Below are positions 3,263-57,383 of a stretch of DNA of 64,000 nt, in pieces. The number at the start of each line of letters is the position of its first letter. The first letter of the stretch is position 1. A program made the translations under genes and the position numbers. The stretch comes from Candidatus Shapirobacteria bacterium (GTDB taxonomy: Bacteria > Patescibacteriota > Microgenomatia > UBA12405), in contig JBAZYN010000002.1 of the NCBI GenBank assembly GCA_041659325.1, positions 206,082-270,081 of the forward strand. Reading direction: 5' to 3'. A model generated the notes under the pieces. It had not been told where the DNA came from, searched no databases, and worked only from the letters and a program-made list of their open reading frames with translations.

Positions 3263-3436
3263 GCCATGCCTGCCGGCAGGCAGGTCGAAAGTCTAAAAGT
3301 CGGAAAGTCGAAAGTCTAAAAGTCTGAAAGACTGAAAGATTAATAGTCTAAAAGTCGAAAGTCTAAAAGTCTGAAAGACTGAAAGATTAATAGTCTAAAA
3401 GTCGAAAGTCTAAAAGTCTGAAAGACTGAAAGATTA
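3263..3436. repeat. 24-bp palindrome GCCATGCCTGCCGGCAGGCAGGTC followed by about 3 tandem copies of a 47-bp unit built from GTCNAAA(A) sub-repeats ('KSESLK' family)
   Basis: Direct reading: tagtctaaaagtcgaaagtctaaaagtctgaaagactgaaagattaa x3. The interspersed segments are not unique, so this is not a CRISPR array. Confidence 0.8.
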
Positions 3437-3439
3437 AAG

Positions 3440-4567: not shown

Positions 4568-5884
4568 ATGAGAAGAAATGGCCATGCCTGCGGGCAGGCA
4601 GGTTTTACAATTATTGAGTTATTGGTGGCGATATCGATAATGGCAGTATTGTCGGTTATTGCCTTTGGCCAATACAGGCAGTCGAAACTAAAGGCGAACG
4701 ATGTTCGGAGGAAGGCAGATTTGAATTCACTTTATAAAGCGATACTGACGGTATACAACGATTCGGGGGTCTTTCCCTCTAATAGTAGTATCCCCTGGGG
4801 AGTGGGGTTGACGGCCAGTGACGGGACTTCATATATGAAGCAAACACCGGTGGATACAAATCCGGCTTTGCCATATTATGTAGAAACGAGGGATGGGGGG
4901 AAGAAAGTAGCTATTTTTTCGAATTTGGAGAACGTGGAGGATTCGGAATATAACAAATATTGTCCGGGTTGCCCGGGTAATCCGTCGTGCCGGAATTCTA
5001 ATTTTGGTTATCGAGCGGGTAACGGACTGACTTATCACTATGTGGTTTTTAGCTCAAATACATCTTATGGGGATTTTGGATTGAATTGTGATATAGTGGC
5101 GTTACCCACCAGTACACCGGTACCTCCCACTAGTACACCAGTTCCACCGACCAGTACGCCGGTACCTCCCACTAGTACACCAATACCACCAACTAGTACA
5201 CCAGTGGCAGCCACCAGTACACCCGTGTCGGCAACCAGTACACCAGTCCCACCAACCAGTACACCGGTGGCACCGACCACTTCACCGCCGCCACCAACAA
5301 GTACACCGATAGTACCGACACCAACATCAACTTGCACTAATCCGGTGTGTCATAGAGATTGGGATACGGATGGGTACGGTGATCCGGGGGTGGCCAATAA
5401 TACCGGATGTGCATCGTGTGTGGCAGGATATGTTATTGATAATAGCGATTGTTGTGATAACAATAATTTGATAAGACCGGGATCGGCATATTATTCAACT
5501 CCTCACGCATCTTGTGTTGGGGTAGGGAGCACTTGGGATTATGATTGTAGTGGTACAGTTACATTCGCGGTAGGGGCGACTTCTGTGTCACTTGCGGGAA
5601 GGCTAAAATCCGGGGGATATTTTCGATACAGAGGGCCTGATTGTGCAGGATGGTCGCCATCGGAAACCGGATATCTGGGATTTGACGCTCAATATATAAC
5701 TCAGGCTGACTGTGGTAAAAACTATTATCTTTGCGACGATGAGGATCTGTCAGTGTTTGATGACGGCCAGGTGTATTCAAGAAAATCGGCAACAGGTGTT
5801 TGTGAAAATATTACCCCGTACTGGATGACAGCGCCCGGGGTTTGTACTTCTCTCGGGTGGCAACAGACAGTTAAGTGTCGATAA
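4568..5884 (+). CDS. type IV pilin-like protein (prepilin N-terminus) with (TSTPVPP)n linker and a Cys-rich C-terminal DTDGYG domain
   Basis: Leader MRRNGHACGQAG followed by FTIIELLVAISIM (class III signal, G/FTxxE). Ten or more TSTPVPP repeats. C-terminal domain CHRDWDTDGYGD...CCDNNNLIRPGSAYY...WDYDCSG, homologous to the ORF 9297-10733 product. Confidence 0.65.
   Translation: MRRNGHACGQAGFTIIELLVAISIMAVLSVIAFGQYRQSKLKANDVRRKADLNSLYKAILTVYNDSGVFPSNSSIPWGVGLTASDGTSYMKQTPVDTNPALPYYVETRDGGKKVAIFSNLENVEDSEYNKYCPGCPGNPSCRNSNFGYRAGNGLTYHYVVFSSNTSYGDFGLNCDIVALPTSTPVPPTSTPVPPTSTPVPPTSTPIPPTSTPVAATSTPVSATSTPVPPTSTPVAPTTSPPPPTSTPIVPTPTSTCTNPVCHRDWDTDGYGDPGVANNTGCASCVAGYVIDNSDCCDNNNLIRPGSAYYSTPHASCVGVGSTWDYDCSGTVTFAVGATSVSLAGRLKSGGYFRYRGPDCAGWSPSETGYLGFDAQYITQADCGKNYYLCDDEDLSVFDDGQVYSRKSATGVCENITPYWMTAPGVCTSLGWQQTVKCR
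4581..4603. repeat. copy of palindrome GCCATGCCTGC(C/G)GGCAGGCAGG, here encoding the pilin leader peptide (GHACGQAG)
   Basis: gccatgcctgcgggcaggcaggtt matches the copies at 3263, 28694 and 54771. Confidence 0.7.
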
Positions 5885-8056: not shown

Positions 8057-9259
8057 TTAGTTGATTATCCACCACTTGAATTCAATCGGTTCAGGGATGG
8101 GGGAATCAAGACCGACAGTGAATGAAGTGTTGGTTTTGGAAATTACACGGAGACTCTGGTGCTTGCCACCTTTTATTACACTGAGATAGACCTGTGAGGA
8201 AGGAGCAAGGTTTTTATTTTGAAGATTGATTTCTTTGGTGGCTGAAGGAAGGGTGGTTTGGCCGGAAAAGGAATTAGTGTCGGTGAGGTTTTCAACATTG
8301 ATGCTTTTTGATGTTTCGGGGGCGGCGATAATCAGACCTGTCCCGATAGGCAAGCCGGAGTCTGCCTGAATGATGGGAGGATTGTCCTGAAGATGGATGG
8401 TGGGGGATGGTGACGTAATTGGTAATCTGTAATCTGTAATCGGTAATTGTTTTGAATCGCTAGAGCTTTGGGAGACTAATTTTTCCAGTGCGAGTTTTTC
8501 ATTTTCAACTTGGGTTTTTTGATCTAGATCGGTAATCAAGGGCAGAAGAGTGGTGTAGGTTTGAAGAGCTTGGGGGATCAGGCCGGTTTGTTGTTGGAGA
8601 CGGGCTAAATCGTAAAAATTTTGGGCTTTGGTGGGCTCCAGAACAACTGTTTGGGTGAGATAGGCAAGGGTTTGAGCAGCATCACCTTTTTTGGCGTACA
8701 TAGAGGCCAAATCACGGGTAATTTCGGCGGAATCGGGGTTGAGCTTTTCGGCGGAGGAGAGATCGGAAATGGCCTGATTAATCAGCTCGGGTTTTGAGCC
8801 GGCAAGGGATTGAAAGATGCGGCTGCGTTGATAATAGCCCCGGTAGTCTTGAGGGAATTCTTTGATGGAATCGGTGGCGGATAAGATGGATTGATTGAGA
8901 AGGCTGATGATAGTTGGTTGAGAGGGCGGACACGTCGGTCCGCCCGTACATGATTGTTGCAATTGGAGAGCTTGGCTGAAATATTGTTGGGAGGTCAGAA
9001 GATAGTGTTGAATTGATTTGGGGACTTGGGTTGGCGAAGGAGATGTAACTGGTAATCTGTAATCTGTAATCTGTAATTGATTAGAATTAGCAGAATCTTG
9101 GGATTTAAATAAAATTAGGGAGCCAAAAGATATGAGGGTGAGGCCGGAAATGGAGATGAGAGGAATAAGGGAGGGTCTCGTATTTTTTGGGGGAGTAGTA
9201 GAAAGTGGTCTAACCCCGAGGGATTCAAGTTTTTGGATTTGGTCGGGGGTGAGATCCAT
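8057..9259 (-). CDS. membrane-anchored TPR-like protein with ITDYRLP(I/V)TSPSPT repeats and C-terminal WWIIN domain
   Basis: N-terminal TM (LIPLISISGLTLISFGSLILF). ITDYRL segments are encoded by the GTAATCW repeat. A GC-rich hairpin copy (8924-8950) sits in frame. The C-terminus ...SFTVGLDSPIPEPIEFKWWIIN matches the C-terminus of the 2584-aa protein. Confidence 0.5.
   Translation of the reverse strand: MDLTPDQIQKLESLGVRPLSTTPPKNTRPSLIPLISISGLTLISFGSLILFKSQDSANSNQLQITDYRLPVTSPSPTQVPKSIQHYLLTSQQYFSQALQLQQSCTGGPTCPPSQPTIISLLNQSILSATDSIKEFPQDYRGYYQRSRIFQSLAGSKPELINQAISDLSSAEKLNPDSAEITRDLASMYAKKGDAAQTLAYLTQTVVLEPTKAQNFYDLARLQQQTGLIPQALQTYTTLLPLITDLDQKTQVENEKLALEKLVSQSSSDSKQLPITDYRLPITSPSPTIHLQDNPPIIQADSGLPIGTGLIIAAPETSKSINVENLTDTNSFSGQTTLPSATKEINLQNKNLAPSSQVYLSVIKGGKHQSLRVISKTNTSFTVGLDSPIPEPIEFKWWIIN
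8414..8448. repeat. GTAATCW heptad repeat in-frame in ORF 8057-9259
   Basis: gtaattggtaatctgtaatctgtaatcggtaattg; the reverse complement encodes ITDYRLPIT. Confidence 0.8.
9045..9078. repeat. GTAATCW heptad repeat in-frame in ORF 8057-9259
   Basis: gtaactggtaatctgtaatctgtaatctgtaatt. Confidence 0.8.
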
Positions 9260-28651: not shown

Positions 28652-28662
28652 TTAAGTATAGA

Positions 28663-32792: not shown

Positions 32793-32826
32793 GTGGTCAA
32801 AAGGATAAAGTAAACGAGTCTAAAAG

Positions 32827-38107: not shown

Positions 38108-38109
38108 AG

Positions 38110-41631: not shown

Positions 41632-42450
41632 ATGAAAATTAAAATATTATTAGTAGTTAGCCTGATAGGGCTGGGAATTTGGTGGTGGGTTAACAGGCCA
41701 AACAATAATTTTAAAATGGTGTTTTGTGATGTCGGTCAGGGGGATGCGGCACTGGTGGTTTATGGTAATTTCCAGATGCTTATAGATGCAGGTCCCGAGA
41801 ACAGAAAGGTATTGAATTGTTTGGAGGATAATTTGCCGTTTGGGGATAAGCAACTGGAGTTAGCGGTAATAACCCACTGGGATTTGGACCACGCCGGTGG
41901 TATAAGAGATGTTTTGAATTATTACAAGATTGAAAAAGTGTTTTCCGGCACTAAACCGGAAGCGGGTTTTGAACAAATAAATTATACAGGTAATTTAAAG
42001 AGCGGTGATGTCATCAAATATGGATTGATGAGTTTTGAAATACTGTCAACGGAGGGAGTTGAGGGAAAAGGAGAGGATGAGGATAACGCTAATTCGGTGG
42101 TTGGGGTGTTAAGTTATAAGGACTATGTGTTTTTCATGATGGGAGATGCGCCGTTGGTAGTGGAGCAAAGACTGGTGTGGAGACAGATAGTCGAAAAGTC
42201 TCAAAGTCTTAAAGCCTCAAAGTCTGAAAATCTGAAAGTAGTATTAAAGGTGAGTCACCATGGGTCGGATACGGCTACGGGCGAGGAATTGTTGGAAGCG
42301 GTAAAGCCGAATATGGCGGTAGTTAGTGTGGGAAAAAATAATTTTGGGCATCCGGCGGAGGAGGTGATAAAAAGGCTTAACGAGAGGGGGATACAGATAT
42401 TAAGAACTGATATGATGGGGGAGATAGAGTTTGTAATCAGTAATCAGTAA
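41632..42450 (+). CDS. comEC: ComEC C-terminal metallo-beta-lactamase domain (separate ORF downstream of RAYT insertion)
   Basis: TM then MLIDAGPEN...AVITHWDLDHAGGIRDV...VSHHGSDTATGEELLEAVKPNMAVVSVGKNNFGHPAEEVIKRL. In-frame GTCNAAA insert (KSQSLKASKSENLKV) at 42190-42240. Confidence 0.65.
   Translation: MKIKILLVVSLIGLGIWWWVNRPNNNFKMVFCDVGQGDAALVVYGNFQMLIDAGPENRKVLNCLEDNLPFGDKQLELAVITHWDLDHAGGIRDVLNYYKIEKVFSGTKPEAGFEQINYTGNLKSGDVIKYGLMSFEILSTEGVEGKGEDEDNANSVVGVLSYKDYVFFMMGDAPLVVEQRLVWRQIVEKSQSLKASKSENLKVVLKVSHHGSDTATGEELLEAVKPNMAVVSVGKNNFGHPAEEVIKRLNERGIQILRTDMMGEIEFVISNQ
42190..42240. repeat. GTCNAAA repeat in-frame in comEC MBL domain
   Basis: gtcgaaaagtctcaaagtcttaaagcctcaaagtctgaaaatctgaaagt. 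Confidence 0.8.
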
Positions 42451-42475
42451 TCAGTAATCAGTAATCTGTAATCTG
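42432..42475. repeat. GTAATCW heptad repeat x6 spanning the comEC stop
   Basis: gtaatcagtaatcagtaatcagtaatcagtaatctgtaatctgg. Confidence 0.85.
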
Positions 42476-43668: not shown

Positions 43669-43968
43669 GTGGACAAGTGGAGACAGAGAATTCATAGATT
43701 AAGTATGAACCAACTAAAAGCGTTGGGGGTGTTGGCGGCGAGTAAAAACGGGATTGTGGAAGCATTGGAATCATCGGGTAATTTGCGTTTATACGGAAAA
43801 GCGTTGGGAGGAGTATTTTCGTCGCTGTCGCGACAAGTTTTGAACGGTCAGCATTTGATCGAGGCCTGGGGTCGTGTCGAACGCGGTAGGGGGTTGAGGT
43901 GGAAGCTGAACTTGGAAGCAATTAGTCAGCGGGAATTGAAAAAAGCGGTAGAGGAGGTACTGGGGTGA
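43669..43968 (+). CDS. small hypothetical protein, stop overlaps start of giant gene (ATGA)
   Basis: 99-aa ORF. The 4-bp overlap suggests translational coupling. Confidence 0.3.
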   Translation: MDKWRQRIHRLSMNQLKALGVLAASKNGIVEALESSGNLRLYGKALGGVFSSLSRQVLNGQHLIEAWGRVERGRGLRWKLNLEAISQRELKKAVEEVLG

Positions 43969-46900
43969 AATTTATCAATTACGAATTACGAATTACTAAT
44001 TACGAATTTAAAAAAATAGTAATTGTTCTGGTTTTGTGGGCGGTGGGATTGGGGGTGGGGTTAATTGGTGGGAATTATTGGTGGAATAATCGAAATGAGG
44101 TGTCGGCGGCAGACAGGGTGTTGACGACAACGGCAGATTTTGACGGGGGAAGATATATGAACATGGAGGCGGATTCAAAACAGGGGCAGCTTAAGTTAAA
44201 GGCTGACGGCTCCTGGGGGCCGAGAGTTTTTACGGTGCCCAACGTTAATTTGGGAAATGAGTCGCCGATAGCTTCGGATGGAAATTATATATATGTGATA
44301 GCTAGTGCGGATAATTATTTTGCCAGGTATATACCGGCGGAGGATAAATGGGAAACTTTGGCATCGGCACCTCACTATGCATATCCCGGTTCGGATATGG
44401 TGGTTTTGGGTGATTATGTATATGCGGTCTTTGGGGGATACCAGCGGGAGTTTAGCCGATATTCGATTGTCAATGACACCTGGGAGGAGATGGCAATGCT
44501 ACTGGATATAACATATGGAGGGACATCGCTGTCAACTGATGGGAATGAGATTTATTGTCTGCGGGGACATAATACGAATGATTTTTGGAAATATGATGTG
44601 CAAGCGGACAGGTGGACTCCGATTGGTAGTACTCCTTTGACGATCAGGTATGGAGCTGATTTGTCATATAGCAGTGAAACCAATAAAATGTATACCCCGA
44701 GGGGTAATAGTTCAAACGTTTTTTATATATATGATTTGGGAACAAGTATCTGGTCGATAGGACCAACATTGCCGGAGACGATGACCGAGGATAGCAACAG
44801 CGATATTGGCGGAACCGTGATTTATGTGCCCAGAGGAATCGGGACAAGTACTTTTTGGGCATTTAACGTGGGAACTACGCAGTGGAGTATTTTAACGGGA
44901 ACTCCCCAGATAACCAGATATGTGGGAGCGGTTTATAATGCGGCGGAAGACAAGGTTTATGTATTTAGGGGCAACGGAACCCCCGACTTTTGGAAATATG
45001 ACCCGGGGGCCAATAGCTTTCCGGGACCAACAGATTTGCCGGCGGCACCGGGGACGGGGTCGGATTTGATATATTCCGATGGATATTGGTATTACAATCG
45101 CGGAGGGACGACGGCAATGTATAGGTATAATGGGGCAGTGGGAGCGACTTGGCAGACAATGGCGGTGGGCTCATCGGTATTTTCGTCGGATACAAAAGGG
45201 GTAGCGGTAAATGGACTATTATATTATCTTCAGGGAGGTGGGGCAAGAAACTTTTTCAGCTTTAGTCCATCGGTGGGGGTGGGAGGAAGCTGGGGGACTT
45301 TGGCGACAATACCGGCGGCGATAGCACCAAATTATGGGGCGGGATTGGCATACCCAGGGAGCGGTGATTATATTTATGCTACCCGGGGAGTCGGAACCAG
45401 AACGTTTATGAGATATGATATGCCCGGCAATGTTTGGAGTGATGTTGGAGTGACGGATTTACCGGATGATGCAGAGGCGGGATATGGGTCGCGGATTATT
45501 GGAGTGGGAACGACGGAATTGTTTTATATTGCCGGAAACGGGGTTGCAAAATTTTTAAAATACAATATTACCAGTGATGCCTGGACGGTGTTGGGAAATT
45601 TGCCATTCTCTCCGTATTATGGGACAGATATGACATATTATGGTGGAAAGATGTATTTCCAGGCGGGATACTACAAGAGGGATATTTGGGAATATACGTT
45701 GGCAACAGGTGAGTGGAGACGTCTGGCGGATATTTCCGGATACAATGCGTCTGATAGCGGGCCTTATAACGGAGGATCGTTGGAGTCGGACGGGGCAGGG
45801 AATTTGTATTCGATTAATGGGGCGAATGTTTTGTGGATCAGAAGTTACTCGATAGGGAGCAGTAGGTATCCGGGTGGGGGGAGTTGGAATTCCGGGACAA
45901 TTGATTTGGAATATGCGGCGGGTTGGTCGGGAATAAATGTGGGAAAGACAACCCCCGGTGATTCGTCGGTGTCGGTGTATACCAGAAGTAGTAGTAACCA
46001 GACTAGTTGGTCGCCATGGCAGGAGGCGGTGGGGATGGGGATCTCCAGCCCCATAAATAGATACCTACAAATAGGAGTTTCGATGCATTCTTCAAGCGGG
46101 GGGAGTGAGACACCAATAATTAATGATATTACGGTGAGTTATATTGGGGATACCGGAGTGCCGACTAATCCGACGTCGATTAGCGGTTTGTCACAGCAGG
46201 TCGCCGGAGTAGGATTAACTTCCGGGCAGAGCTATTCTTATAACCAACCGTATTTTGATTGGAGTGGGGGGGGAGACACAGAAACATCGGTGGCAGGGTA
46301 TTATGTGTATTTTGGGACCGGAACAACGGCGACGGTCGACCCGGCGATCAGCGGCAGCTATCAGACGGACTCTAGCTATTTGGTAACAATGCCGATGCAA
46401 ACCGGGACTTATAGTTTGTTGATTAAAACAAAAGATCTGGGCGGGAATGTAAGCAATACTTGGCAGGCATTTGTGTATGTTTATAACGGAGTATCTCCTT
46501 TTATAAGTTTTGCTCAAGCGTCGACGCCTGAATTTTCGATAGGGACAACGGCGGGGGTGGATATTAGCAATAATAGAATCAGACTGATGGGGACAAGTGG
46601 GTTTTGGGAACAGGAGAGGTTGAGCTTGTTACAGGCTAATGTTACGGTTGGTAACGGGGGCGATGTGGCGGTAATGGGTAACAAGCTTTATATTATGAGA
46701 GGTAACGGAGGAAAGGAATTTTCTATTTATGATTTGTCTACCGATGTAGTATCGGTGGGACCGACAATGCCGGCAACGGTGGCGGCCGGAGGAGCTTTGG
46801 TAGAAGGACCGCCTGGGTATTTGTATGCTATGAGAGGAGGAGGGACATCGACTTTTTGGAGGTATGACATTGGGGCTAGTCTGTGGTCTGATGCTTTGGC

Positions 46901-49900
46901 GATGGATACACTGCAACAGACGAATTCGGGAGCGGCAATGGTGTATGACGAGGGAAATTATATTTATGCACTGAAGGGGAACGGAGACGATACTTTTATG
47001 AGATATGATGCTTCAATTGATAACTGGGAAGTGATGGCAAACAACGTTGTTTTTGGAGCACCAGAAAATCAGGCCGATAATTTAGTGAACTTAGGAGGGG
47101 ACTTGGCTTATGACGTGGGGACTAGCAGGGTTTATGCGATTCAGGGAAATTTAAGAACGGGGTTTGCTGTTTATGATGTCAATGCGGATTCGTGGTCTCA
47201 GCTACCAAATTTGCCGGCATTATCTTATTATGGGGCGAGGATCGAGTATGACTCGGGGACCGGGGCAGTGTTTTATATCCCCGGATGGGATAAACCATTT
47301 TTGTATAAGTATGATGTGGGGGAACAGGTTTGGACAAAGATATCAGACGCGCCGGCGGGGTTGGGATATGGGGCTAATTTGAGAAAGGTAGGAGGGTATC
47401 TTTATGTGACCCGAGGGGCATCGACAACGACGATATACAAGTATAATATTGCCAAAAATTCCTGGGTAGTGCCGAGTTGGAATCTATTTGGGGGTTGGTG
47501 GAGGGGGTCGGATAGCCGGACTTTTGCTGATGGGGCTGACATAATTCGGGGGGATGGAAACAATATGTATATTTTCAGGGGAAATTATGACAATTTGTTT
47601 GTAAAATATAATGCGACCACGGGTGAGGTGACAAAATTGACGGATGTTCCAGCCGGGATATTTAGGGGGTCAGAATTGGTGTATGATAGCGTAAATAATA
47701 AAATTTATGCCTCAACCAGTATCTATGATAAAAAGTTTATGGTTTATGACATAGCGACTGATGAGTGGTCTCAGGTGGTGGGAAGCGGGGGAACAATGCC
47801 CACCGATGCCGGGGAGGGATCATCTCTGGTGTTTGACGGGAGTGAATATATTTATCGGTTGAGGGGTGGCAATACGCAGACATTTCACAAATTTAGCGTG
47901 AATACCGGCTTGTGGTCGACACTGCCTAATACGCCGAGGGCGATGCAGTATGGGTCGGATTTGGAGATATACAACAGTAATTATTATGCTACCCGAGGAG
48001 CCGGAACGACTGAATTTTTTATGTTTAATCCAACTTTGGGGGTGTGGTCTTCGTCGCCGGCGATTGCCAGATTGCCGACGGGGATGACCTTTAATTATGA
48101 TGGGTTTTTGGTGAAAGGAGCGAGTGATAAAATGTATGGCTGTCGGGGAGGAAATACGGCTGATTGTTTTGTGTATTCGGTAATAAGTAATACCTGGACA
48201 TATATCGGGACAAGTATGCCGGCAAATTTAACCTACGGAGGAGCGGGGGCGATAAACCAAACCGGGGATAAAATGTATGTAATTGCCGGGGCGGGAACGA
48301 ATACCTATAGCAATGGACTCTATTCCTATGTGATTTCGACCGATAATTCATCGGTGGGTGAAAGCGGAACTTTTATATCGGGGGCTCATGATTTGGGAGA
48401 AGTGTTTAGGTATGCCAATTTAGAGGTGGGTTATAGTGCGGCGCCAAATACAACACTTATGGTATGGACGAGGACTTCTGACGATGGAGTAGGGTGGGGC
48501 AGTTGGGTGCAGGCATCATCGGAAAAACAGATTGGGAGTGATTTTTATTATCGAATTGGATCGACGGCGAAGCGGTATATTCAGGTTCGGTTTGATTTGG
48601 CCTCGGGAGACAAGATGTATTCGGGAACAATATATGACTATAAAATTAATTATTATCAGGATTCGGCCCCGCCAACCAATCCGACAATAATATCGGCTTT
48701 TGATAACGGCGGAATGGGGTCAACTTTGGTGTCGGGGACTTTTTATGCTACAACCGCCCCTTATTTTGATTGGCCGGGGGTGGGAGAAACCGGAGCGGCG
48801 GGTGATGGTAACGGTGGGTCTGGAGTAAATGGGTACTATGTTTATTTTGGCTTGGGAGAGACGGCTAATCCGGTATCCGGAGCCGGAACAACTTATACAA
48901 TAGCAACAGCGCATACCGGAACAGGAATGACAACGGGCAACCTGTATTATTTAAGACTTAAAGCAAAAGATGAGGCGGGGAATGTGGCCAGTGAGGTGGG
49001 GACGACATTTGTGTTTGGTTATGATGGGTCACCACCAACTAATCCGACAACGATTACAGCCGATCCACCGGGATACACGGCAACAAATAGTTTTGCTTTT
49101 TCTTGGAGTGGGGCCGGTGATACCGGGGCGGGGGTAGAAGGATATTATTATAAAACCGGTTCGGTAGGGGCGACAGAAGTCTTTACCACTGACTCAAATG
49201 TGGCGGGGATAGCAGCTTACCAAACAGGGACAAATACTTTTTATGTGAGGACAAAGGACTTGGCAGGAAATGTGTCGGAATATACCACTTCGTCATATTA
49301 TTGGAGCTCGACGGCGCCGGGAGCGCCGAGGGATTTAAGACTGACTTATCCTGATGTGGGGACAAGTAATACGGTTAATGAGTTTGCATTTGCCTGGTCG
49401 AGCCCGGATCCGGAAACGTATTTTGGGCAATTAAGCGGGCTGCGGTATTATTATTCGTTTAATGAAACGCCATCGGTAAGCAATGTTAATGAGGTTGGAT
49501 TAGCGGTGACTTATCTGTCGAAAGGGGCATATGCAACGCGTAGAGATACAAACACTTTATACGTGGTGGCGATGGATGAAGCAGGAAATATTGACTATAG
49601 AAATCGTGCCTCAATAGATTTTGAGGCATCAACTTCAGCACCGGGGACACCGGGAGATATTGATATTTCTGATGTGTCAATAAAAGAAAGCAGTGCCTGG
49701 AGATTGGCGCTGACTTGGGATACGCCGGTGGCAACCGGGTCGGGGGTATCAATGTATAAGGTTTATAGATCGACAACGACAGGAGCAGTTTGTACCAGTG
49801 ATTTTTCAGACTTTGAATATGCGTCGTCAACAACAGGGGTATCTTATGTGGATATCGGCCTAACTCAGGTGAAATATTATTATTGTGTGAAAGCCTGTGA

Positions 49901-51197
49901 TTCGACCAATGAATGTAGTGCCCCGTCCGGGACAGTGAGCTATAAGCCGGACGGAAAGTGGAAGGTAGCCCCGACAATGACGGCTAGCCCGTCGGCGACG
50001 ATTAAAACAAAGTCGGCAACAATAAGTTGGTCGACAAACAGAACCAGTAATTCGTTTGTAAAATACGGAAAGACATCGGGGACTTACGGGGAAGAAGTGG
50101 GATCGTCTGACCAGGTATCGTTGCACGAAATTACTTTAACCGGATTGGACCCGGGAACGACGTATTATTATATTACTCAATGGACTGACGAGGATGGGAA
50201 TACCGGATCTTCGGCCGAGCTGAACCTGACGACTAATGCGGCACCATTTGTGTCGGCAGTAAAAGTGGTAGATACCGGATTGTACTCGGTCTATGTGGAG
50301 TTTAATTTAAGCAATGCAACAACGGCGACGGTGCAGTACGGGAAAACAATAAGTTACGGAGGGGTGCAAACGGTAACAACATCCCGGGAGGCGAGTAGTT
50401 ATACGGTAAAAATAGAGGGATTAGACGAGGGAACGGAATATCATTTGCGGATTGCCGCCAATGACGAGGAGGGTAATACTTTTGCTAGCGATGACTATAC
50501 CTTTGAAACATTGCCGGTACCAAAGATTAGCGGGGTAAAAATTCAGCAGGTCAAGGGTATGCCGACGGCGACGGTGCGGTTTTTATGGAAGACGAATACC
50601 GGAGTCAGTTCAATTATTACCTATTATCCTGAAGGAAGGGCGGAAATGGCCCGGGATCAAATATCGTTGCCTTTGACGTTAAATCATGAAATGATGATAA
50701 AAGATTTGTTGGATGATACGCCATATGTGTTTGTAATAAAGGGGAAAGATGTGATAGGAAACAGCGCTGAGCCCAGTCCTCAGAAATTTACAACATCGAC
50801 TGATTTGAGGCCGCCATCTATTTCTAACTTAAGACTAGAGGCTTCGGTGGCCGGGGTAGGCGAAGAGGCGAAAGCGCAAATTACTTTATACTGGGATACC
50901 GATGAGCCGTCGACGGCTCAGGTGGAGTACGGAGCCGGGACCGGATCTGATTATCCGAGTAAAACTCAGAAAGATGTGATTATGGTAATGAACCACACAG
51001 TAACAGTGACGGATTTGGCGCCGGGGCAGGTATACCACTTGCGGGTTTTGGCAGAGGATAGGGTGCAAAATTTGACAATGTCCTATGATAACGTGGTGAT
51101 TACACCAAAGGCGACCAGATCAGCCCTGGATTTGGTGGTAGAAAATTTGTCAAAGAGTTTTGGATTCTTTAATAATTTGTCGCAAGTAGCTAAATAA
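43965..51197 (+). CDS. giant (2410 aa) membrane-anchored surface protein with many Kelch-type beta-propeller blades and C-terminal FN3/PKD-like domains
   Basis: N-terminal TM. Dozens of repeats of the form YxxxG..x(F/Y)xxYDxxxxxW (e.g. DKVYVFRGNGTPDFWKYD). FN3-like segments (SATISWSTNRTSNSFVKYGKTSGTYGEE...HEITLTGLDPGTTYYY). The N-terminus KFINYELRITNYEF is encoded by the ATTACGA repeat. Confidence 0.7.
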   Translation: MKFINYELRITNYEFKKIVIVLVLWAVGLGVGLIGGNYWWNNRNEVSAADRVLTTTADFDGGRYMNMEADSKQGQLKLKADGSWGPRVFTVPNVNLGNESPIASDGNYIYVIASADNYFARYIPAEDKWETLASAPHYAYPGSDMVVLGDYVYAVFGGYQREFSRYSIVNDTWEEMAMLLDITYGGTSLSTDGNEIYCLRGHNTNDFWKYDVQADRWTPIGSTPLTIRYGADLSYSSETNKMYTPRGNSSNVFYIYDLGTSIWSIGPTLPETMTEDSNSDIGGTVIYVPRGIGTSTFWAFNVGTTQWSILTGTPQITRYVGAVYNAAEDKVYVFRGNGTPDFWKYDPGANSFPGPTDLPAAPGTGSDLIYSDGYWYYNRGGTTAMYRYNGAVGATWQTMAVGSSVFSSDTKGVAVNGLLYYLQGGGARNFFSFSPSVGVGGSWGTLATIPAAIAPNYGAGLAYPGSGDYIYATRGVGTRTFMRYDMPGNVWSDVGVTDLPDDAEAGYGSRIIGVGTTELFYIAGNGVAKFLKYNITSDAWTVLGNLPFSPYYGTDMTYYGGKMYFQAGYYKRDIWEYTLATGEWRRLADISGYNASDSGPYNGGSLESDGAGNLYSINGANVLWIRSYSIGSSRYPGGGSWNSGTIDLEYAAGWSGINVGKTTPGDSSVSVYTRSSSNQTSWSPWQEAVGMGISSPINRYLQIGVSMHSSSGGSETPIINDITVSYIGDTGVPTNPTSISGLSQQVAGVGLTSGQSYSYNQPYFDWSGGGDTETSVAGYYVYFGTGTTATVDPAISGSYQTDSSYLVTMPMQTGTYSLLIKTKDLGGNVSNTWQAFVYVYNGVSPFISFAQASTPEFSIGTTAGVDISNNRIRLMGTSGFWEQERLSLLQANVTVGNGGDVAVMGNKLYIMRGNGGKEFSIYDLSTDVVSVGPTMPATVAAGGALVEGPPGYLYAMRGGGTSTFWRYDIGASLWSDALAMDTLQQTNSGAAMVYDEGNYIYALKGNGDDTFMRYDASIDNWEVMANNVVFGAPENQADNLVNLGGDLAYDVGTSRVYAIQGNLRTGFAVYDVNADSWSQLPNLPALSYYGARIEYDSGTGAVFYIPGWDKPFLYKYDVGEQVWTKISDAPAGLGYGANLRKVGGYLYVTRGASTTTIYKYNIAKNSWVVPSWNLFGGWWRGSDSRTFADGADIIRGDGNNMYIFRGNYDNLFVKYNATTGEVTKLTDVPAGIFRGSELVYDSVNNKIYASTSIYDKKFMVYDIATDEWSQVVGSGGTMPTDAGEGSSLVFDGSEYIYRLRGGNTQTFHKFSVNTGLWSTLPNTPRAMQYGSDLEIYNSNYYATRGAGTTEFFMFNPTLGVWSSSPAIARLPTGMTFNYDGFLVKGASDKMYGCRGGNTADCFVYSVISNTWTYIGTSMPANLTYGGAGAINQTGDKMYVIAGAGTNTYSNGLYSYVISTDNSSVGESGTFISGAHDLGEVFRYANLEVGYSAAPNTTLMVWTRTSDDGVGWGSWVQASSEKQIGSDFYYRIGSTAKRYIQVRFDLASGDKMYSGTIYDYKINYYQDSAPPTNPTIISAFDNGGMGSTLVSGTFYATTAPYFDWPGVGETGAAGDGNGGSGVNGYYVYFGLGETANPVSGAGTTYTIATAHTGTGMTTGNLYYLRLKAKDEAGNVASEVGTTFVFGYDGSPPTNPTTITADPPGYTATNSFAFSWSGAGDTGAGVEGYYYKTGSVGATEVFTTDSNVAGIAAYQTGTNTFYVRTKDLAGNVSEYTTSSYYWSSTAPGAPRDLRLTYPDVGTSNTVNEFAFAWSSPDPETYFGQLSGLRYYYSFNETPSVSNVNEVGLAVTYLSKGAYATRRDTNTLYVVAMDEAGNIDYRNRASIDFEASTSAPGTPGDIDISDVSIKESSAWRLALTWDTPVATGSGVSMYKVYRSTTTGAVCTSDFSDFEYASSTTGVSYVDIGLTQVKYYYCVKACDSTNECSAPSGTVSYKPDGKWKVAPTMTASPSATIKTKSATISWSTNRTSNSFVKYGKTSGTYGEEVGSSDQVSLHEITLTGLDPGTTYYYITQWTDEDGNTGSSAELNLTTNAAPFVSAVKVVDTGLYSVYVEFNLSNATTATVQYGKTISYGGVQTVTTSREASSYTVKIEGLDEGTEYHLRIAANDEEGNTFASDDYTFETLPVPKISGVKIQQVKGMPTATVRFLWKTNTGVSSIITYYPEGRAEMARDQISLPLTLNHEMMIKDLLDDTPYVFVIKGKDVIGNSAEPSPQKFTTSTDLRPPSISNLRLEASVAGVGEEAKAQITLYWDTDEPSTAQVEYGAGTGSDYPSKTQKDVIMVMNHTVTVTDLAPGQVYHLRVLAEDRVQNLTMSYDNVVITPKATRSALDLVVENLSKSFGFFNNLSQVAK
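43977..44009. repeat. ATTACGA heptad repeat encoding the N-terminus of the 2410-aa protein
   Basis: caattacgaattacgaattactaattacgaatt. Confidence 0.85.
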
Positions 51198-54186: not shown

Positions 54187-54250
54187 GAAAGTCTAAAAGT
54201 CTGAAAGTCTTAAAGTCGAAAGTTATAAAGTTCATAAAGTTTATAAAGAG
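54187..54250. repeat. GTCNAAA repeat (intergenic)
   Basis: gaaagtctaaaagtctgaaagtcttaaagtcgaaagttataaagttcataaagtttataaag. Confidence 0.8.
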
Positions 54251-54330: not shown

Positions 54331-54366
54331 TGTAATCAGTAATTGGTAATTTGTAATCTGCAATAA
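54331..54366. repeat. GTAATCW heptad repeat (intergenic)
   Basis: tgtaatcagtaattggtaatttgtaatctgcaat. Confidence 0.75.
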
Positions 54367-54385: not shown

Positions 54386-54658
54386 ATGCCAATAATCAGG
54401 GGAGTAGAACACGGGGAGCTGATTGGGGAGAATGGTGAAAAAATTGAACTGCCGGTTTCTCCCAGGAAAGTGCCTAAACCAAAACGAAAAATTCTAGTGG
54501 CACCACAATCGGACGAGTTGAGAGAAGCAGGATGCAGAAGGGAGGAATTTAACGAGATAGCGGAGGGTACAACCGATACGCAGGTGGTGGCAGTAGAATT
54601 ACCGATTAGAAGGAAAACAAGTCGGTCTAGAAGGAAAAGAGCCGCACCCGAGGAATAG
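54386..54658 (+). CDS. small Arg/Lys-rich hypothetical protein
   Basis: 90-aa ORF, basic C-terminus (RRKTSRSRRKRAAPEE). No recognisable domain. Confidence 0.25.
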   Translation: MPIIRGVEHGELIGENGEKIELPVSPRKVPKPKRKILVAPQSDELREAGCRREEFNEIAEGTTDTQVVAVELPIRRKTSRSRRKRAAPEE

Positions 54659-54680
54659 CCTGATTGTGCTAGAATAAGCC

Positions 54681-57383
54681 ATGAATTTTGCTGAAATCGA
54701 GCCAAAATGGTTAAAGTTTTGGAATGAGCATCCGGAGCTTTATAGAGCCACTGAGTCTGAAAGTCTGAAAGCCATGCCTGCCGGCAGGCAGGTCTTAAAG
54801 TCTGAAAGTAAAAAAGATAAAAAATACATTTTGGTGGAGTTTCCGTATCCGAGTGGAAGCGGATTGCATGTTGGTCATGCTTTTAGTTTTACGGCAGCAG
54901 ACATATATGCCAGGTTTAAGAGAATGCAGGGGTATAATGTGATGTTTCCTATGGGGTGGGATGCGTTTGGACTGCCGACTGAGAATTATGCAATAAAGAT
55001 GAAGCGGAAACCACAAGAGATTGCCCGGGAGAATATTGATATGTTTAGGGAGCAGGCGAAGAGGTTGGCGCTTTCTTTTGATTGGGAGAGAGAAGTAAGC
55101 ACGATTGATCCAAATTATTATAAATGGACTCAATGGATTTTTATACAATTATTTAAGAAGGGATTGGCATACAAGAAAGAGATGCCGATTAATTGGTGTC
55201 CTTCATGTAAAATCGGTTTGGCAAATGAAGAAGTAGTGGATGGGAAGTGTGAACGGTGTGGGGCAGAAGTTTCAAGAAGAAATATTTCCCAATGGGTGGT
55301 AAAAATTACTAATTATGCAGACCGACTGCTAGAAGGGTTAAAAAATACCGATTTTATCGATAAAGTAAAACAGGCGCAGATAAACTGGATTGATCGTAAA
55401 GAATGGATCGATATTACTTATCCGATTGAAGGAACGAAAGAAACAGTGACAGTGGCAACGACCAGGCCGGATACAAATTTTGGAGCGACTTTTATTGTGT
55501 TGGCGCCGGAACATGATTTGGTAAGTAAGTTGACAACCGGAATGCTAAAAACGGATCAGGACTTAAAAGAGATAAAGAACTATGTGGTTAAAGCTAAGAG
55601 GAAATCGGAATTAGAAAGGCAGCGGGAAGTAACCGGTAGGGATAAAACGGGGGTGTTTACCGGATTGTATGCAATTAACCACTTAACAAATAAAAAAATG
55701 CCGATTTGGATAACGGATTTTGTATTGGCAACAGTGGGAACGGGGGCGGTGGTTGGAGTGCCGGGACACGATATTCGTGATTTTGAATTTGCCAAGCAAT
55801 TTGGTCTGGAGGTGAAAAGAGTAGTAGTAGGTAAAGATGGTGATAAATCGGAAATAATCAAAAAGGAACAGGTTCAGGAAGAGGAGGGGGAGATGGTCAA
55901 TTCCGGTTTTCTTGACGGACTCGGTATCCATGAGGCAACAAAAAAGGTTATGGATTATTTGGAAGAGAAGGGGTGGGGGAAAAGATCGATCAGATATCAC
56001 TTAAGAGACTGGATATTTTCCAGGCAGCATTATTGGGGAGAGCCAATACCGATGATTTTTTGCGAAAAATGCGCAGAAAATCAAACCCTACCCCCGGCCC
56101 CTTCCCTTGACAGGGCAGGGGAAAAAGAAATTCTCCCTTGTCAAGGGGAGATGGCCGAAGGCCAGAGGGGTTTGAATTGCGGTTGGGTTCCGGTGCCGGA
56201 GGATCAACTGCCAATTAAGTTGCCGGAGGTTGAGGCGTATGAGCCGACTGAGGACGGGAAGAGCCCGTTGTCAAAAATTGAAAGCTTTGTGAAGTGCAAA
56301 TGCCCGGTATGCGGGGGCGAGGCAAAGAGGGAAACGGATACAATGCCAAACTGGGCGGGATCTGACTGGTATTATCTCGCATATTTATTACCTAATATGC
56401 GAGAGTCTGAAAGTCAAAAGTCAAAAGTCGAAAGTAATAAGGGAAATATTTTTATTGAAAATCAAGAGAAACTAAGAGAATGGATGCCGGTTGATATATA
56501 TATTGGCGGGGATGAACACAATACTTTGCATTTGCTGTATTCCCGGTTTATTTACCAGTTTTTATGGGATTTGGGAGTGGTCCCCAAAGAGTATCCGGAG
56601 CCGTATATAAAGCGGGTATCGCATGGGGTGATTTTGGGGCCGGATAATCAGAGGATGAGTAAGTCGAAGGGAAATATAATAGTGCCGGAAAAGGTGTCTG
56701 AGGTATATGGAGTGGATGTGATTAGGTGCTATCTAATGTTTATGGGACCGTTTGATGCAGTAATGGCATGGAATGAAAAAACTTTAATGGGGGTGAAGAG
56801 GTTTTTGGATAGGTTTAGTAAATATATTAATGATCAATTACGAATTACCCACCTCGGCGGGCAGGCGAATTACGAATTAGACATAGTGTCTGCTAGCAAA
56901 GCCGAGGATAAAGTGTTTATCAATAAGATGGTGGCCGGGGTGACAAAGGACTTAGAAGAATTTGGCTATAACACGGCGATAGCGAAGATGATGGAAGGAA
57001 TAAATCAATTACGAATTAATAATTACGAATTACGAATTGAGGAAATAAAAACGTTAATTAAATTAATTGCGCCGTTTGCGCCGTATTTGGGGGAGGAGCT
57101 TTGGAGCATGTGTGGAGAAAAGGGGTCGGTACATGTTTCTGCCTGGCCGGTGGCAGAGGATAAGTATTTGGTTGAGAAGACAATTACAATAGCGGTGGCG
57201 ATTAATGGAAAAGTGAGGGATCAGATAGAAGTCGAAAGTCTAAAAGTCTTAAAGTCTGAAAGTAAAGAAGAAATTATTGCGGAGGCAAAGAAATTGGAAA
57301 AGATTCAAAAGTGGCTGGAAGGAAAGAAGATTATCAGAGAAATATATGTGCCGGGGAAGATGGTTAATTTTGTAGTAGAGTAG
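54681..57383 (+). CDS. leuS: leucyl-tRNA synthetase carrying five in-frame repeat-derived insertions
   Basis: HIGH-class motif PYPSGSGLHVGHAFSFTAADIYARF. KMSKS as RMSKSKGN. Editing and anticodon-binding regions. Inserts at 54754-54812, 56085-56180, 56401-56436, 56836-56879 and 57007-57040/57231-57266. Confidence 0.9.
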   Translation: MNFAEIEPKWLKFWNEHPELYRATESESLKAMPAGRQVLKSESKKDKKYILVEFPYPSGSGLHVGHAFSFTAADIYARFKRMQGYNVMFPMGWDAFGLPTENYAIKMKRKPQEIARENIDMFREQAKRLALSFDWEREVSTIDPNYYKWTQWIFIQLFKKGLAYKKEMPINWCPSCKIGLANEEVVDGKCERCGAEVSRRNISQWVVKITNYADRLLEGLKNTDFIDKVKQAQINWIDRKEWIDITYPIEGTKETVTVATTRPDTNFGATFIVLAPEHDLVSKLTTGMLKTDQDLKEIKNYVVKAKRKSELERQREVTGRDKTGVFTGLYAINHLTNKKMPIWITDFVLATVGTGAVVGVPGHDIRDFEFAKQFGLEVKRVVVGKDGDKSEIIKKEQVQEEEGEMVNSGFLDGLGIHEATKKVMDYLEEKGWGKRSIRYHLRDWIFSRQHYWGEPIPMIFCEKCAENQTLPPAPSLDRAGEKEILPCQGEMAEGQRGLNCGWVPVPEDQLPIKLPEVEAYEPTEDGKSPLSKIESFVKCKCPVCGGEAKRETDTMPNWAGSDWYYLAYLLPNMRESESQKSKVESNKGNIFIENQEKLREWMPVDIYIGGDEHNTLHLLYSRFIYQFLWDLGVVPKEYPEPYIKRVSHGVILGPDNQRMSKSKGNIIVPEKVSEVYGVDVIRCYLMFMGPFDAVMAWNEKTLMGVKRFLDRFSKYINDQLRITHLGGQANYELDIVSASKAEDKVFINKMVAGVTKDLEEFGYNTAIAKMMEGINQLRINNYELRIEEIKTLIKLIAPFAPYLGEELWSMCGEKGSVHVSAWPVAEDKYLVEKTITIAVAINGKVRDQIEVESLKVLKSESKEEIIAEAKKLEKIQKWLEGKKIIREIYVPGKMVNFVVE
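54754..54812. repeat. GTCNAAA repeat + GCCATGCCTGCCGGCAGGCAGGTC palindrome in-frame in leuS (ESESLKAMPAGRQVLKSESKKD)
   Basis: agtctgaaagtctgaaagccatgcctgccggcaggcaggtcttaaagtctgaaagt. Confidence 0.85.
56085..56180. repeat. copy of DUF559-element terminal repeat (CCCTTGTCAAGGGGAG...GAGGGGTTTGA) inserted in-frame in leuS
   Basis: ccttcccttgacagggcagggg...ctcccttgtcaaggggagatggccgaaggccagaggggtttgaattg. It encodes PAPSLDRAGEKEILPCQGEMAEGQRGLNCG, which is absent from E. coli LeuS at this position (recalled from memory). Confidence 0.7.
56401..56436. repeat. GTCNAAA repeat in-frame in leuS (ESESQKSKVESNKG)
   Basis: gagagtctgaaagtcaaaagtcaaaagtcgaaagt. Confidence 0.8.
56836..56879. repeat. ATTACGA repeat (interrupted by cctcggcgggcaggcg) in-frame in leuS
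   Basis: caattacgaattacccacctcggcgggcaggcgaattacgaatt. Confidence 0.75.
57007..57040. repeat. ATTACGA repeat in-frame in leuS (QLRINNYELRIEE)
   Basis: caattacgaattaataattacgaattacgaatt. Confidence 0.85.
57231..57266. repeat. GTCNAAA repeat in-frame in leuS (VESLKVLKSESKEE)
   Basis: gtcgaaagtctaaaagtcttaaagtctgaaagt. Confidence 0.8.

Follow-up and report, generated by a model that had tools for sequence, protein, structure and literature searches.

How does the same short tandem repeat come to stand at many unlinked places of a genome, both between genes and inside essential ones, and leave those genes intact? The question is raised by a sequence of 64,000 nucleotides (nt) from a metagenome-assembled genome (MAG) of Candidatus Shapirobacteria, a bacterium of the Candidate Phyla Radiation (CPR). 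This whole stretch is called the window here, and all window coordinates refer to it. It contains 23 arrays of 7-8-nt repeats. The arrays belong to the known dispersed heptanucleotide class (STRR or TAACTGA type) and do not represent a new system; this assignment is well supported, and so is a selection filter acting on the copies. How the copies arise is less certain. On balance, we lean towards STRR-type dispersed heptamer and octamer repeats which are copied into, or over, other sequence like cassettes by a trans-acting process, and are then subject to slippage, selection and some co-option.

Arrays were located with Tandem Repeats Finder, with a period scan of our own, and with pattern searches compared with shuffled sequence. 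Shuffles yield approximately no arrays; the window has about one per 3 kb, each of roughly 33 nt. In the period scan, 11 arrays have period 7 and 6 have period 8, whereas 20 dinucleotide shuffles give 0.0 and 0.05 respectively; no array has a period of 4-6 or 10-12. The three-core ATTAC pattern ATTACNNATTACNNATTAC, with up to 2 mismatches, has 46 matches in the window against 0.22 expected. The pattern AAAGTCN{1,2}AAAGTCN{1,2}AAAGT has 19 against 0.00 expected, on the + strand only. There are two families. AAAGTCN(N) is found only on the + strand (9 of 9 arrays, two-sided P = 0.004) and mixes 7- and 8-nt units. ATTACNN is found in both orientations, with period 7 and 2.7-6 copies. Together, the 14 loci with an ATTAC core and the 9 of the AAAGTC family are dispersed across 56 kb of the window. 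All are direct repeats, of 19-75 nt; most ATTAC arrays measure 32-34 nt, and several AAAGTC arrays are 33 nt long.

The ATTAC family is widely distributed. The exact 19-mer AATTACGAATTACGAATTA, which corresponds to (AATTACG)2.7, is present in at least 120 stretches in a scan of 185,579 species genomes. Nostocales are dominant among the matches listed, with dozens of Nostoc, Anabaena, Calothrix and Scytonema genomes. The other hosts among them are Bacteroidota, Ignavibacteria, Acidobacteriota, Chloroflexota, Planctomycetota, Verrucomicrobiota, Lentisphaerota and two CPR genomes; the matches listed span at least eight phyla. Their loci contain 405 period-7 arrays, against at most 95 at any other period, and 149 distinct heptamer units, including the classical cyanobacterial CCCCAGT. 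Arrays of (AAAGTCN)n are equally common in metagenomes, mostly with a strict period of 7 (among the matches listed). (AATTACG)n is also found in 91 stretches of viral contigs. One viral contig is a genuine phage, with endolysin, tape-measure and tail-fibre genes, and has arrays of 31-33 nt at almost every gene junction. An initial annotation of the window had proposed an invasive oligonucleotide-repeat system. As a new system it does not hold, as (AATTACG)n fills the genomes of Nostocales, Bacteroidota, Chloroflexota, Acidobacteriota, Planctomycetota and phages. The window arrays show the traits of the heptamer class: 7-nt head-to-tail units, recurrence at many loci, several families, an excess of period 7, and a unit shared with Nostocales. 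They depart from it in location. Heptamer repeats are predominantly intergenic, and 12 of the 23 window arrays are in open reading frames (ORFs).

Two regularities of the class bear on its origin. The first is the start phase. Of 141 (AATTACG)n arrays which are not subject to ascertainment bias, 99 begin exactly at AATTACG, and 24 more begin one base earlier. Against the 1/7 expected, the binomial tail is ~5e-51 if arrays are counted as independent; shared ancestry would weaken it. Base composition predicts a phase bias of about 2-fold, and the observed bias is 5-fold. Array ends are looser than starts and fall at AAT, AATT or AATTA. The second is length. Heptamer arrays have a modal length of 31-33 nt, beyond which their number drops steeply, in each of the genome, metagenome and viral sets; weaker peaks stand at 19, 26 and 40 nt.

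Pfam assigns rho, an M23/LysM peptidase, ppdK (32850-35597), leuS (54681-57383) and an M16 peptidase in the window. It finds comEC as separate ORFs, Competence (39847-40914) and Lactamase_B (41632-42450). Three giant proteins carry LVIVD, Laminin_G and Kelch/fn3 domains; the Kelch giant is encoded by 43965-51197. Two tRNAs alone exceed the Rfam gathering threshold in the window. The arrays are placed among these genes as follows.

3287-3437, + strand: AAAGTCN(N) array, intergenic, ending 2 nt before the ATG (3440) of the M23/LysM peptidase gene; a perfect higher-order repeat of 47 nt x 2.9 takes up 3304-3437, and a 24-nt palindrome (3263-3286) lies directly upstream of the array
28662-28694, + strand: AAAGTCN(N) array of 33 nt, intergenic, followed by a palindrome copy; it is antisense to the minus-strand giant Laminin_G gene and lies 10 nt upstream of its start (28651)
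32817-32849, + strand: AAAGTCN(N) array of 33 nt which abuts the ppdK ATG (32850)
33039-33113, + strand: AAAGTCN(N) array, ppdK codons 64-88, ESLKVEKS x 3, with a 24-nt higher-order period
42188-42239, + strand: AAAGTCN(N) array, codons 186-203 of the comEC Lactamase_B ORF, EKSQSLKASKSENLKV
54187-54248, + strand: AAAGTCN(N) array, intergenic, beginning 6 nt past the FtsX-permease stop and decaying into AAAGTTNAT units
54754-54815, + strand: composite element, leuS codons 25-45, translated TESESLKAMPAGRQVLKSESK; two AGTCTGAA units, the 24-nt palindrome GCCATGCCTGCCGGCAGGCAGGTC and two further units
56401-56435, + strand: AAAGTCN array, leuS codons 574-585, ESESQKSKVES
57228-57263, + strand: AAAGTCN(N) array, leuS codons 850-861, VESLKVLKSES
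30569-30608, + strand: ATTACNN array between the stop of a 497-aa ORF and the start (30566) of a 331-aa ORF, both on the minus strand
40409-40441, + strand: (AATTACG)n array of 33 nt, codons 188-199 of the comEC Competence ORF, QLRINNYELRI
43977-44008, + strand: (AATTACG)n array, codons 5-15 of the giant Kelch/fn3 protein, flanked by the GTG start (GGAGG Shine-Dalgarno) and a KK-hydrophobic signal segment
51200-51232, + strand: (AATTACG)n array of 33 nt, intergenic, 2 nt past the Kelch stop and 10 nt before the ATG of an ABC ATPase gene
56836-56848, + strand: AATTACG remnant of ~2 units, leuS codons 719-723, DQLRIT
56998-57038, + strand: (AATTACG)n array in leuS, with core 57007-57038 as codons 776-786, NQLRINNYELRI
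59850-59874, + strand: perfect (AATTACG)3.6 array, intergenic, 17 nt from the 5' end of tRNA-Arg
8414-8447, - strand: ATTACNN array (GTAATCT on the + strand), codons 271-282 of a minus-strand TPR gene, LPITDYRLPIT
9044-9077, - strand: ATTACNN array, codons 61-72 of the TPR gene, LQITDYRLPVT
19348-19390, - strand: ATTACNN array, intergenic, ~235 nt upstream of the minus-strand LVIVD giant gene
30487-30519, - strand: ATTACNN array, codons 16-27 of the 331-aa ORF, LLLITGYKLQVT, in its N-terminal hydrophobic segment
38771-38803, - strand: ATTACNN array, codons 19-30 of a 249-aa minus-strand ORF, LLLITNYWLPIT, in its N-terminal hydrophobic segment
42432-42473, - strand: (GTAATCA)n as read on the + strand, overlapping and supplying the stop of the comEC Lactamase_B ORF (...VISNQ*)
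54331-54364, - strand: ATTACNN array, intergenic, between the FtsX permease gene and leuS

The two TPR arrays lie in a 630-nt internal duplication and are therefore not independent events. At every coordinate of the initial annotation a repeat array is present, by Tandem Repeats Finder and by inspection of the sequence, and the peptides it read as KSESLKV, NYELRI(T) and ITDYRL agree with the translations ESLKVEKS..., NYELRI... and ITDYRL.... Its three families become two, because ATTACGA and GTAATCW are both ATTAC+NN on opposite strands and differ in the 2-nt linker alone. The array at 30569-30608 (ATTACAG, + strand) is absent from its list. It counted five arrays in leuS; there are four or five, as the one at 56836 has only ~2 units. 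Its genic sites are correct for ppdK, leuS, both comEC ORFs and the Kelch gene; 42432-42473 is not inside an ORF but overlaps the stop of comEC_C.

The palindrome mentioned above is a small element in its own right. The 24-nt sequence GCCATGCCTGCCGGCAGGCAGGTC is present in three identical copies (3263-3286, 28695-28718 and 54772-54795) and has a 14-nt perfect palindrome core. All three are nested within AAAGTC arrays, as though 21 nt had been inserted into a unit between AAAG and TC. The copy in leuS is translated AMPAGRQV, and a variant (4583-4602) occupies codons 6-12 of a pilin-like gene. Its pattern has 17 matches against 0.15 expected by chance. A pilin-like protein also has a 21-nt/63-nt in-frame repeat, ACCAGTACACC (5104-5307), which encodes a T-S-T-P-V-P-rich linker; this repeat is of the ordinary codon-periodic kind and is unrelated to the 7-8-nt families.

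Coding copies were compared with orthologs, including those of two syntenic relatives, L001 (a JGI metagenome) and L002 (Shapirobacteria GCA_018062705.1). The 12 arrays inside intact ORFs are all in frame: they are in leuS, ppdK, both comEC ORFs, the Kelch giant, the TPR gene and two genes for putatively secreted proteins, the 331-aa and 249-aa ORFs, where they form part of N-terminal hydrophobic segments. In an alignment of LeuS with the T. thermophilus structure 1h3n, the arrays of codons 25-45, 574-585 and 850-861 align to gaps. The first of these segments is missing from T. thermophilus LeuS and from most orthologs; the second array lies within a segment which exceeds its T. thermophilus counterpart by ~15 aa. 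Across 20 orthologs the LeuS core has ~805-815 aa, against 900 aa in the window, and in alignment with them the repeat peptides are limited to the closest relatives. The window LeuS is identical to MFA5828562.1, from a Candidatus Shapirobacteria MAG; the nearest other LeuS among 5.8 billion proteins is only 66% identical. The PpdK array is a clean 22-aa insertion relative to Clostridium symbiosum PPDK (9pzl/1kbl). Outside its inserts PpdK is ~90% identical to the L001 ortholog. The genes which carry the arrays are working genes and not pseudogenes. An AlphaFold2 model of LeuS, built from a 21-sequence alignment, has a mean predicted local distance difference test (pLDDT) score of 66 and is not used for any claim of surface exposure. 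Low confidence spans the N-terminal, 469-495 and 567-613 inserts as well as large native stretches.

The initial annotation had left it to ortholog comparison whether the LeuS, PPDK and ComEC segments are ancestral. The solved LeuS and PPDK structures, the 20 LeuS orthologs and the relatives agree that they are lineage-specific. Its term "inserted" holds in part, as some arrays replace stretches of equal length. It also rightly described reading frames as open: every copy within an ORF keeps the frame, and none disrupts its ORF. That in-gene copies add multiples of 3 nt holds but is uninformative, as it follows from the ORFs being intact; moreover, at two LeuS sites the array takes the place of ~11 native codons, with little or no net insertion.

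The same sites carry different repeats in sister genomes. At the LeuS C-terminal site the flanks are GGGATCA (window and L001) or AGAGAACA (L002), and AAGAAGA. The sequence between them consists of AAAGTC repeats in the window (41 nt), of (AATTACG)n in L001 (32 nt) and of CAGTTAN/GAGTTAN repeats in L002 (38 nt). The L001 array encodes 10 residues, which equals the length of orthologs that have no repeat; the array has thus replaced native sequence and caused no lengthening. The (AATTACG)n stretch of LeuS codons 776-786, common to the window and L001, equals array-free orthologs in length and is hence also a replacement. At codons 574-585, L001 carries the AAAGTCN family at the same site. At codons 719-723 there is a ~2-unit remnant in the window and a full (AATTACG)n array in L002. 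The site of the comEC Lactamase_B array has a shorter array of the same family in L001 and none in L002. ComEC is split alike in the window, L001 and L002, and the repeats are therefore not the cause of the split. The window and L001 also differ by unrelated small elements at ppdK codons 64-88, upstream of ppdK, at the LeuS N-terminus and in comEC_N. The elements exchanged are a tandem array, a REP hairpin and other hairpin elements. Upstream of the ppdK ATG, for example, there is an array in the window and a REP-type hairpin in L001, and at ppdK codons 64-88 L001 has a different hairpin element. Arrays at shared sites (comEC_C, LeuS 574-585 and 776-786) are 84-94% regular, and synonymous sites of the window and L001 are ~57% identical. 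Regularity set against synonymous divergence suggests that the arrays may undergo ongoing renewal or homogenisation.

L002 has 23 arrays in 22.6 kb (~1 per kb), of which 19 have period 7, with at least 8 different units. Nine or 10 are inside ORFs, including LeuS (three times), MurB, RuvC and WecG. The array trait is clade-wide, and L002 shares the tolerance of arrays in coding sequence. Other recurrent elements occupy the same loops in Microgenomates LeuS proteins (P0003, P0008, P0011, P0015 and P0034) and in the L001 ppdK, leuS and comEC_N genes; their peptides include segments of the RRDAPRND, RDCHGLRPRND and EIATAFGLAMT type. From these sequences, colonisation of conserved proteins by repeat elements looks general in Microgenomates.

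Orientation and location show which copies are retained. One strand of (AATTACG)n and of (ATTACAG)n is free of stop codons in every frame, and the opposite strand has stops in every frame. Without exception, ATTAC arrays within ORFs have the open orientation, because stop codons close the other. (ATTACTG)n has stops on both strands, and the array of this kind (42432-42473) overlaps the stop codon of comEC_C. Pure GAAAGTCT or AAAAGTCT units contain TGA or TAA; coding arrays use other linkers or are placed out of that frame. An alternative genetic code was considered for the TGA-containing units and is unneeded, as arrays in ORFs avoid in-frame stops under table 11. The reverse complements of GAAAGTCT, GAAAGTCG, AAAGTCG and AAAGTCC units are open in all frames; those of AAAAGTCT, CAAAGTCT, AAAGTCT and AAAGTCA units are not. 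Stop codons do not account for the restriction of the AAAGTC family to the + strand. All its arrays are on the G-rich + strand of the window, where the GC skew is +0.2 to +0.46 per 2 kb and almost uniformly positive, also over minus-strand genes.

Arrays are depleted in ORFs: 12 of 23 are found there against 20.4 expected at a coding density of 88.8% (P ~1e-5). In other phyla the depletion of (AATTACG)n is stronger, with 11 of 165 in sense ORFs against 48% for random placement; the coding share in the window has 15-fold higher odds (Fisher P ~3e-7). Multiples of 3 and open frames are thus a matter of survivorship, as broken copies have been removed. The simplest reading of the high coding share is a shortage of non-coding room in the genome: where 89% is coding, a large share of the tolerated copies will be inside genes, essential ones included.

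Some arrays form foldbacks. The inverted pair 30487-30519 and 30569-30608 encloses the AUG of the 331-aa ORF in a hairpin of -36.9 kcal/mol (z = -4.85). In the L002 ortholog other heptamers make up a hairpin of the same architecture (z = -3.25), and four other phyla have foldbacks whose arms are (AATTACG)n. Arrays were examined for features of miniature inverted-repeat transposable elements: solitary arrays lack an inverted repeat, and the inverted pair 30487-30608 and the foreign foldbacks have the shape of terminal inverted repeats. No target-site duplication or empty site was identified at the arrays examined for these features.

The favoured reading, that of cassette-like copying, can be set out in four steps. 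A trans-acting copying activity of the repair or recombination type would write an array of ~26-33 nt with a fixed first base, and the written array would either add sequence or overwrite a stretch of similar length. We infer this step because array starts are locked in phase, lengths have a common mode and families are swapped at a single site. Replication slippage would then alter the array, as the perfect 47-nt x 2.9 and in-frame 24-nt x 3 repeats partly show. Purifying selection would remove copies that break genes. The pattern agrees: survivors in ORFs are stop-free, in frame and placed in poorly conserved loops, N-termini or signal-peptide regions, and the others accumulate at gene boundaries. 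Finally, some copies may have gained roles, such as a stop codon, N-terminal hydrophobic segments and a start-codon hairpin. The initial annotation had held that the repeats are not the product of ordinary slippage, and in this it was right, as units recur at many loci, are locked in phase, and are swapped between families at one codon position. It also saw an invasive repeat tolerated in coding sequence; the tolerance is borne out, and an invasiveness in the sense of active copying is presumed from the sequence patterns. A bolder version, which we regard as speculative and rather doubtful, is a horizontally spread, trans-acting "repeat-writing" activity in many phyla and phages, which would lay down ~33 nt (4-5 units) from a fixed base of a heptamer template, as an addition or in place of sequence of about equal length. 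A template-directed polymerase, a reverse transcriptase or an oligonucleotide-integrating enzyme could be candidate writers. If true, it would account together for the start phase, the 31-33-nt mode, the cross-phylum units and the family swapping, and the gene behind it would be most easily sought in small CPR genomes, which have about one array per 1-3 kb.

Slippage in place is the plainest alternative. Here the replicative polymerase slips by 7 nt, local heptamers expand, and the units that recur would be those most prone to expansion or most readily tolerated, with no copying between loci; preferential slippage of this size is an idea of Mrazek et al. 2007, as related in a passage of PMC4679880. 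Period 7 is dominant regardless of unit (149 units in 405 arrays), L002 has at least 8 units in 22.6 kb, and the perfect higher-order repeats show that slippage is active. Lengths of 7k+5 are also expected from a seed of two 5-nt repeats 7 nt apart. However, each step of +/-7 nt would shift the frame of an essential ORF, so that stepwise growth to 4-5 units is not viable there. Nor would slippage be expected to give one unit with one start phase across unrelated phyla, a phase bias above the ~2-fold that base composition predicts, a sharp drop in array length after 33 nt, or three families at one LeuS site in three genomes, one of them with no change of length. As the sole origin of the arrays it is unlikely. 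Somewhat less likely still is that arrays are functional cis-elements, which at gene junctions and mRNA 5' ends would serve for binding or as leaders without structure and so control translation or processing, with the ORF copies as by-products or N-terminal extensions. Five intergenic arrays are ~10 nt or less from starts (array/start 3437/3440, 32849/32850, 51232/51243, 30569/30566 and 28662/28651), many in-ORF arrays are in the first 30 codons, and in other phyla 17% of (AATTACG)n arrays precede a start by 30 nt or less, where random placement would give 2%. The phage contig with its arrays at gene junctions, the start-codon hairpin of the 331-aa ORF, whose architecture is kept in L002, and agreement with PMC4679880 and PMC4692102 point the same way. 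Against this, intergenic ATTAC arrays in the window have no consistent orientation to transcription, the many units per genome would demand many binders, and arrays deep in leuS, ppdK and comEC have no obvious role in expression. Location alone cannot separate function from tolerance, because at 89% coding the boundaries are the only neutral places. A regulatory role at mRNA 5' ends may be true for a subset of arrays.

Arrays at the 5' ends of surface-protein genes could also be contingency loci, which give phase variation through frameshifts of +/-1 unit. They are suitably placed in codons 5-15 of the Kelch gene, in codons 16-30 of the two ORFs with hydrophobic N-termini, and upstream of both other giants, and the differences between assemblies in the rho region cluster in the 3287 array. 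As a general explanation this is improbable: arrays are equally found in leuS, ppdK, comEC and the L002 murB and ruvC, genes whose silencing would be fatal or serve no purpose; units are imperfect and few per array (4-5); and the assembly difference, located where a de Bruijn contig ends, may be artefactual. Only for the arrays of surface-protein genes is phase variation plausible. The assembly in question is from Logan (SRR18595301) and represents an almost identical strain, with 99.8-100% identity in flanks. Its contigs stop inside arrays or within ~10 nt of them, at 3330, 51202, 54177 and 59872. Logan 8468-8512 compared with window 3287-3330 is the sole difference of the rho region and is in the AAAGTC array (6 mismatches, 2 gaps). 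It may be copy-number variation or a contig-end artefact, and is not trusted here. The same assembly bears on whether the arrays themselves are errors of assembly or binning. The source is a MAG, and short-read assemblers struggle with repeats; but an independent assembly matches the flanks and has four contig ends in or near arrays, orthologous arrays are present in two genomes from other samples, and the affected ORFs are all intact. An artefact can be practically dismissed.

Several points weigh against the cassette-like copying which we favour. No copying enzyme, target-site duplication or transposition intermediate was found. No gain or loss of arrays is seen at strain level, in a comparison limited to one assembly of 99.8-100% identity which ends at arrays. 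The 149 units found elsewhere suggest that many arrays arise locally. The phase lock of AAAGTCN is only moderate, with AAAGTC, AAGTC or AGTC starts, i.e. 3 of 7 phases, in 78%. Replacement is read from the alignment of poorly conserved loops, where an insertion plus a deletion may give the same picture. The nucleotide identity of shared arrays between the window and L001 is 0.61-0.72, a measure inflated by the arrays' self-similarity, and is not above the gene average. Finally, 76 kb of the genome is covered, and a flank of 12 kb beyond the window contains no array.

The window contains other small elements besides the arrays. A RAYT (REP-associated tyrosine transposase) gene (40917-41555) separates the two comEC ORFs, with REP-like hairpins, GGGCGGACACGCCGGTCCGCCCGTACA, on its flanks. 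Hairpins are located at 8922, 35035, 40804, 41208, 41259 and 41587, and a REP family, GGGCGGACACGCCGGTCCGCCC, surrounds the gene. REP copies are translated in frame inside the RAYT gene (a 51-nt x 2.4 repeat), extend the comEC_N C-terminus and, in one case, lie inside ppdK (KEGQTHRSAHT). The RAYT ortholog of L001 (7361-7936, 38% identity) is likewise positioned, and its repeat at the corresponding internal site is 24 nt x 3.9. RAYT was considered as the mobiliser of the arrays. It accounts for the REP hairpins; the tandem arrays are not self-complementary and have no hairpin, and RAYT was rejected for them. In leuS, a hairpin element of ~105 nt, CTCCCTTGTCAAGGGGAG…GAGGGGTTTG (56073-56177), forms codons 465-499 in frame. 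It follows a CEKC motif (aligned to CEAC in T. thermophilus) and corresponds to a 35-aa gap relative to 1h3n at 465-499. Copies at 36556-36607 and 37136-37187 bracket a DUF559 endonuclease gene, and many Microgenomates LeuS proteins have other inserts at this position. Upstream of leuS, TGTGCTAGAATAAGCC-ATG (54655-54683) is conserved in L001 (9955-10003), with an extended -10-like box ~5 nt before the ATG; the position of this box suggests that the leuS mRNA may be leaderless. A perfect 56-nt x 2.3 tandem repeat (59957-60085) is next to tRNA-Pro (60067-60143, - strand). Each 56-nt unit begins with sequence overlapping the tRNA-Pro 3' end and contains a GGGGG/CCCCC hairpin. The repeat may have arisen as the scar of an integration site or by duplication of a terminator. 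In L002, a similar repeat of 63 nt x 2.3 (14779-14921) stands beside heptamer arrays.

What is new here is the CPR host, the family of mixed 7- and 8-nt units, and the frequent in-frame residence in essential genes. No account of heptamer repeats was found in the literature on CPR, and the heptamer class is now extended into this group, at very high density. Translated arrays form a natural map of permissive loops in LeuS, PpdK and ComEC. They are also a source of new peptide segments, including parts of N-terminal hydrophobic segments. The start phase, the 31-33-nt mode which is independent of the unit, and family swapping constrain any mechanism and argue against plain slippage. To our knowledge there is no explanation for the spread of identical heptamer units to hundreds of loci or to unrelated phyla; the regularities of the arrays and the family swapping make this old question more tractable. 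In practical terms, arrays break short-read assemblies and lengthen CPR proteins (LeuS has 900 aa against a core of ~810), and inserts could create spurious low-complexity "domains" in annotation.

Knowledge of heptamer repeats in cyanobacteria goes back to about 1990. The short tandemly repeated repetitive (STRR) heptamers of heterocystous cyanobacteria were reportedly described by Mazel et al. in that year. The window arrays resemble them in their 7-nt units, the few units per array, the several dispersed families per genome and the lack of a known mechanism; furthermore, the window unit AATTACG is abundant in Nostocales, and CCCCAGT is found in the same loci. They differ in the CPR host, in the one family which mixes 7- and 8-nt units, in their density (~1 per 3 kb, and 1 per kb in L002), and in the 52% of arrays located in ORFs, including essential genes, against 7% for (AATTACG)n in other phyla.

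TAACTGA heptamers occur in 2-6 copies and mostly adjoin start codons; one orientation has stops in all frames, by which it ends ORFs, and the other is translated (LSVISYQ) (MacGregor 2015, PMC4679880). Their patchy distribution across marine Beggiatoaceae, cyanobacteria and Bacteroidetes suggests horizontal spread, and translational or processing control has been proposed for them (PMC4679880). The window arrays share the low copy number, the proximity to start codons, the contrast between a stop-rich and a translated orientation, and the patchy spread across phyla. The CAGTTAN units in L002 LeuS (QLSVNSDELRV) are close to the reverse complement, TCAGTTA. The window units are other sequences, however, and translated copies in BOGUAY are at protein termini or in hypothetical proteins, whereas those of the window are internal to LeuS, PpdK and ComEC.

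The G-rich heptamers GGGAATC (Xanthomonas) and GGGGA(T/C)T (Nostoc) have a preferred copy number of ~4 units (Rehm et al. 2015, PMC4692102). They are located within 50 bp of ORF ends, occasionally as inverted pairs, and vary in length and sequence among close relatives (PMC4692102). Passages of this paper and of PMC4679880 cite Mrazek 2007 for a general heptanucleotide excess and for the idea of polymerase slippage. Copy number (~4), location near ORF ends, inverted pairs and variation between relatives are common to these repeats and the window arrays. The latter are A/T-rich, yet have an equal modal length; formation of G-quadruplexes (G4) alone therefore cannot explain the length preference.

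Small genomes are generally noted in the CPR group, and in-frame elements are also said to occur in another bacterium. The Rickettsia palindromic elements (RPEs) described by Ogata et al. (2000) are reportedly of ~100-150 bp and lie in frame in conserved Rickettsia genes, tolerated at surface-exposed positions of proteins which stay functional. The likeness is that of selfish in-frame inserts in conserved genes of a reduced genome: LeuS, PpdK and ComEC stay intact, and orthologs lack the inserts. RPEs are palindromic and ~100-150 bp long, whereas the window arrays are direct repeats of 19-75 nt. The RPE-like cases in the window are separate elements, namely the ~105-nt leuS hairpin and the ppdK REP hairpins. 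The small dispersed repeats (SDRs) of Nostocaceae described by Elhai et al. (2008) are reportedly 21-27 nt long, and their presence or absence at orthologous sites is said to suggest mobility with no encoded transposase. The palindrome nested in AAAGTC arrays fits this description of very short (<35 nt) dispersed repeats, with no shared sequence established.

In the tandem repeats of Borgs, each region reportedly has its own unit, and units within ORFs are said to be divisible by 3. According to PMC9879509, Borg repeats in ORFs create probably disordered segments, and the repeat regions arise independently at each locus. In both cases in-ORF tandem repeats add new peptide segments and leave the frame intact. 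The window units differ in that they are of 7-8 nt and are common to unlinked loci and across phyla.

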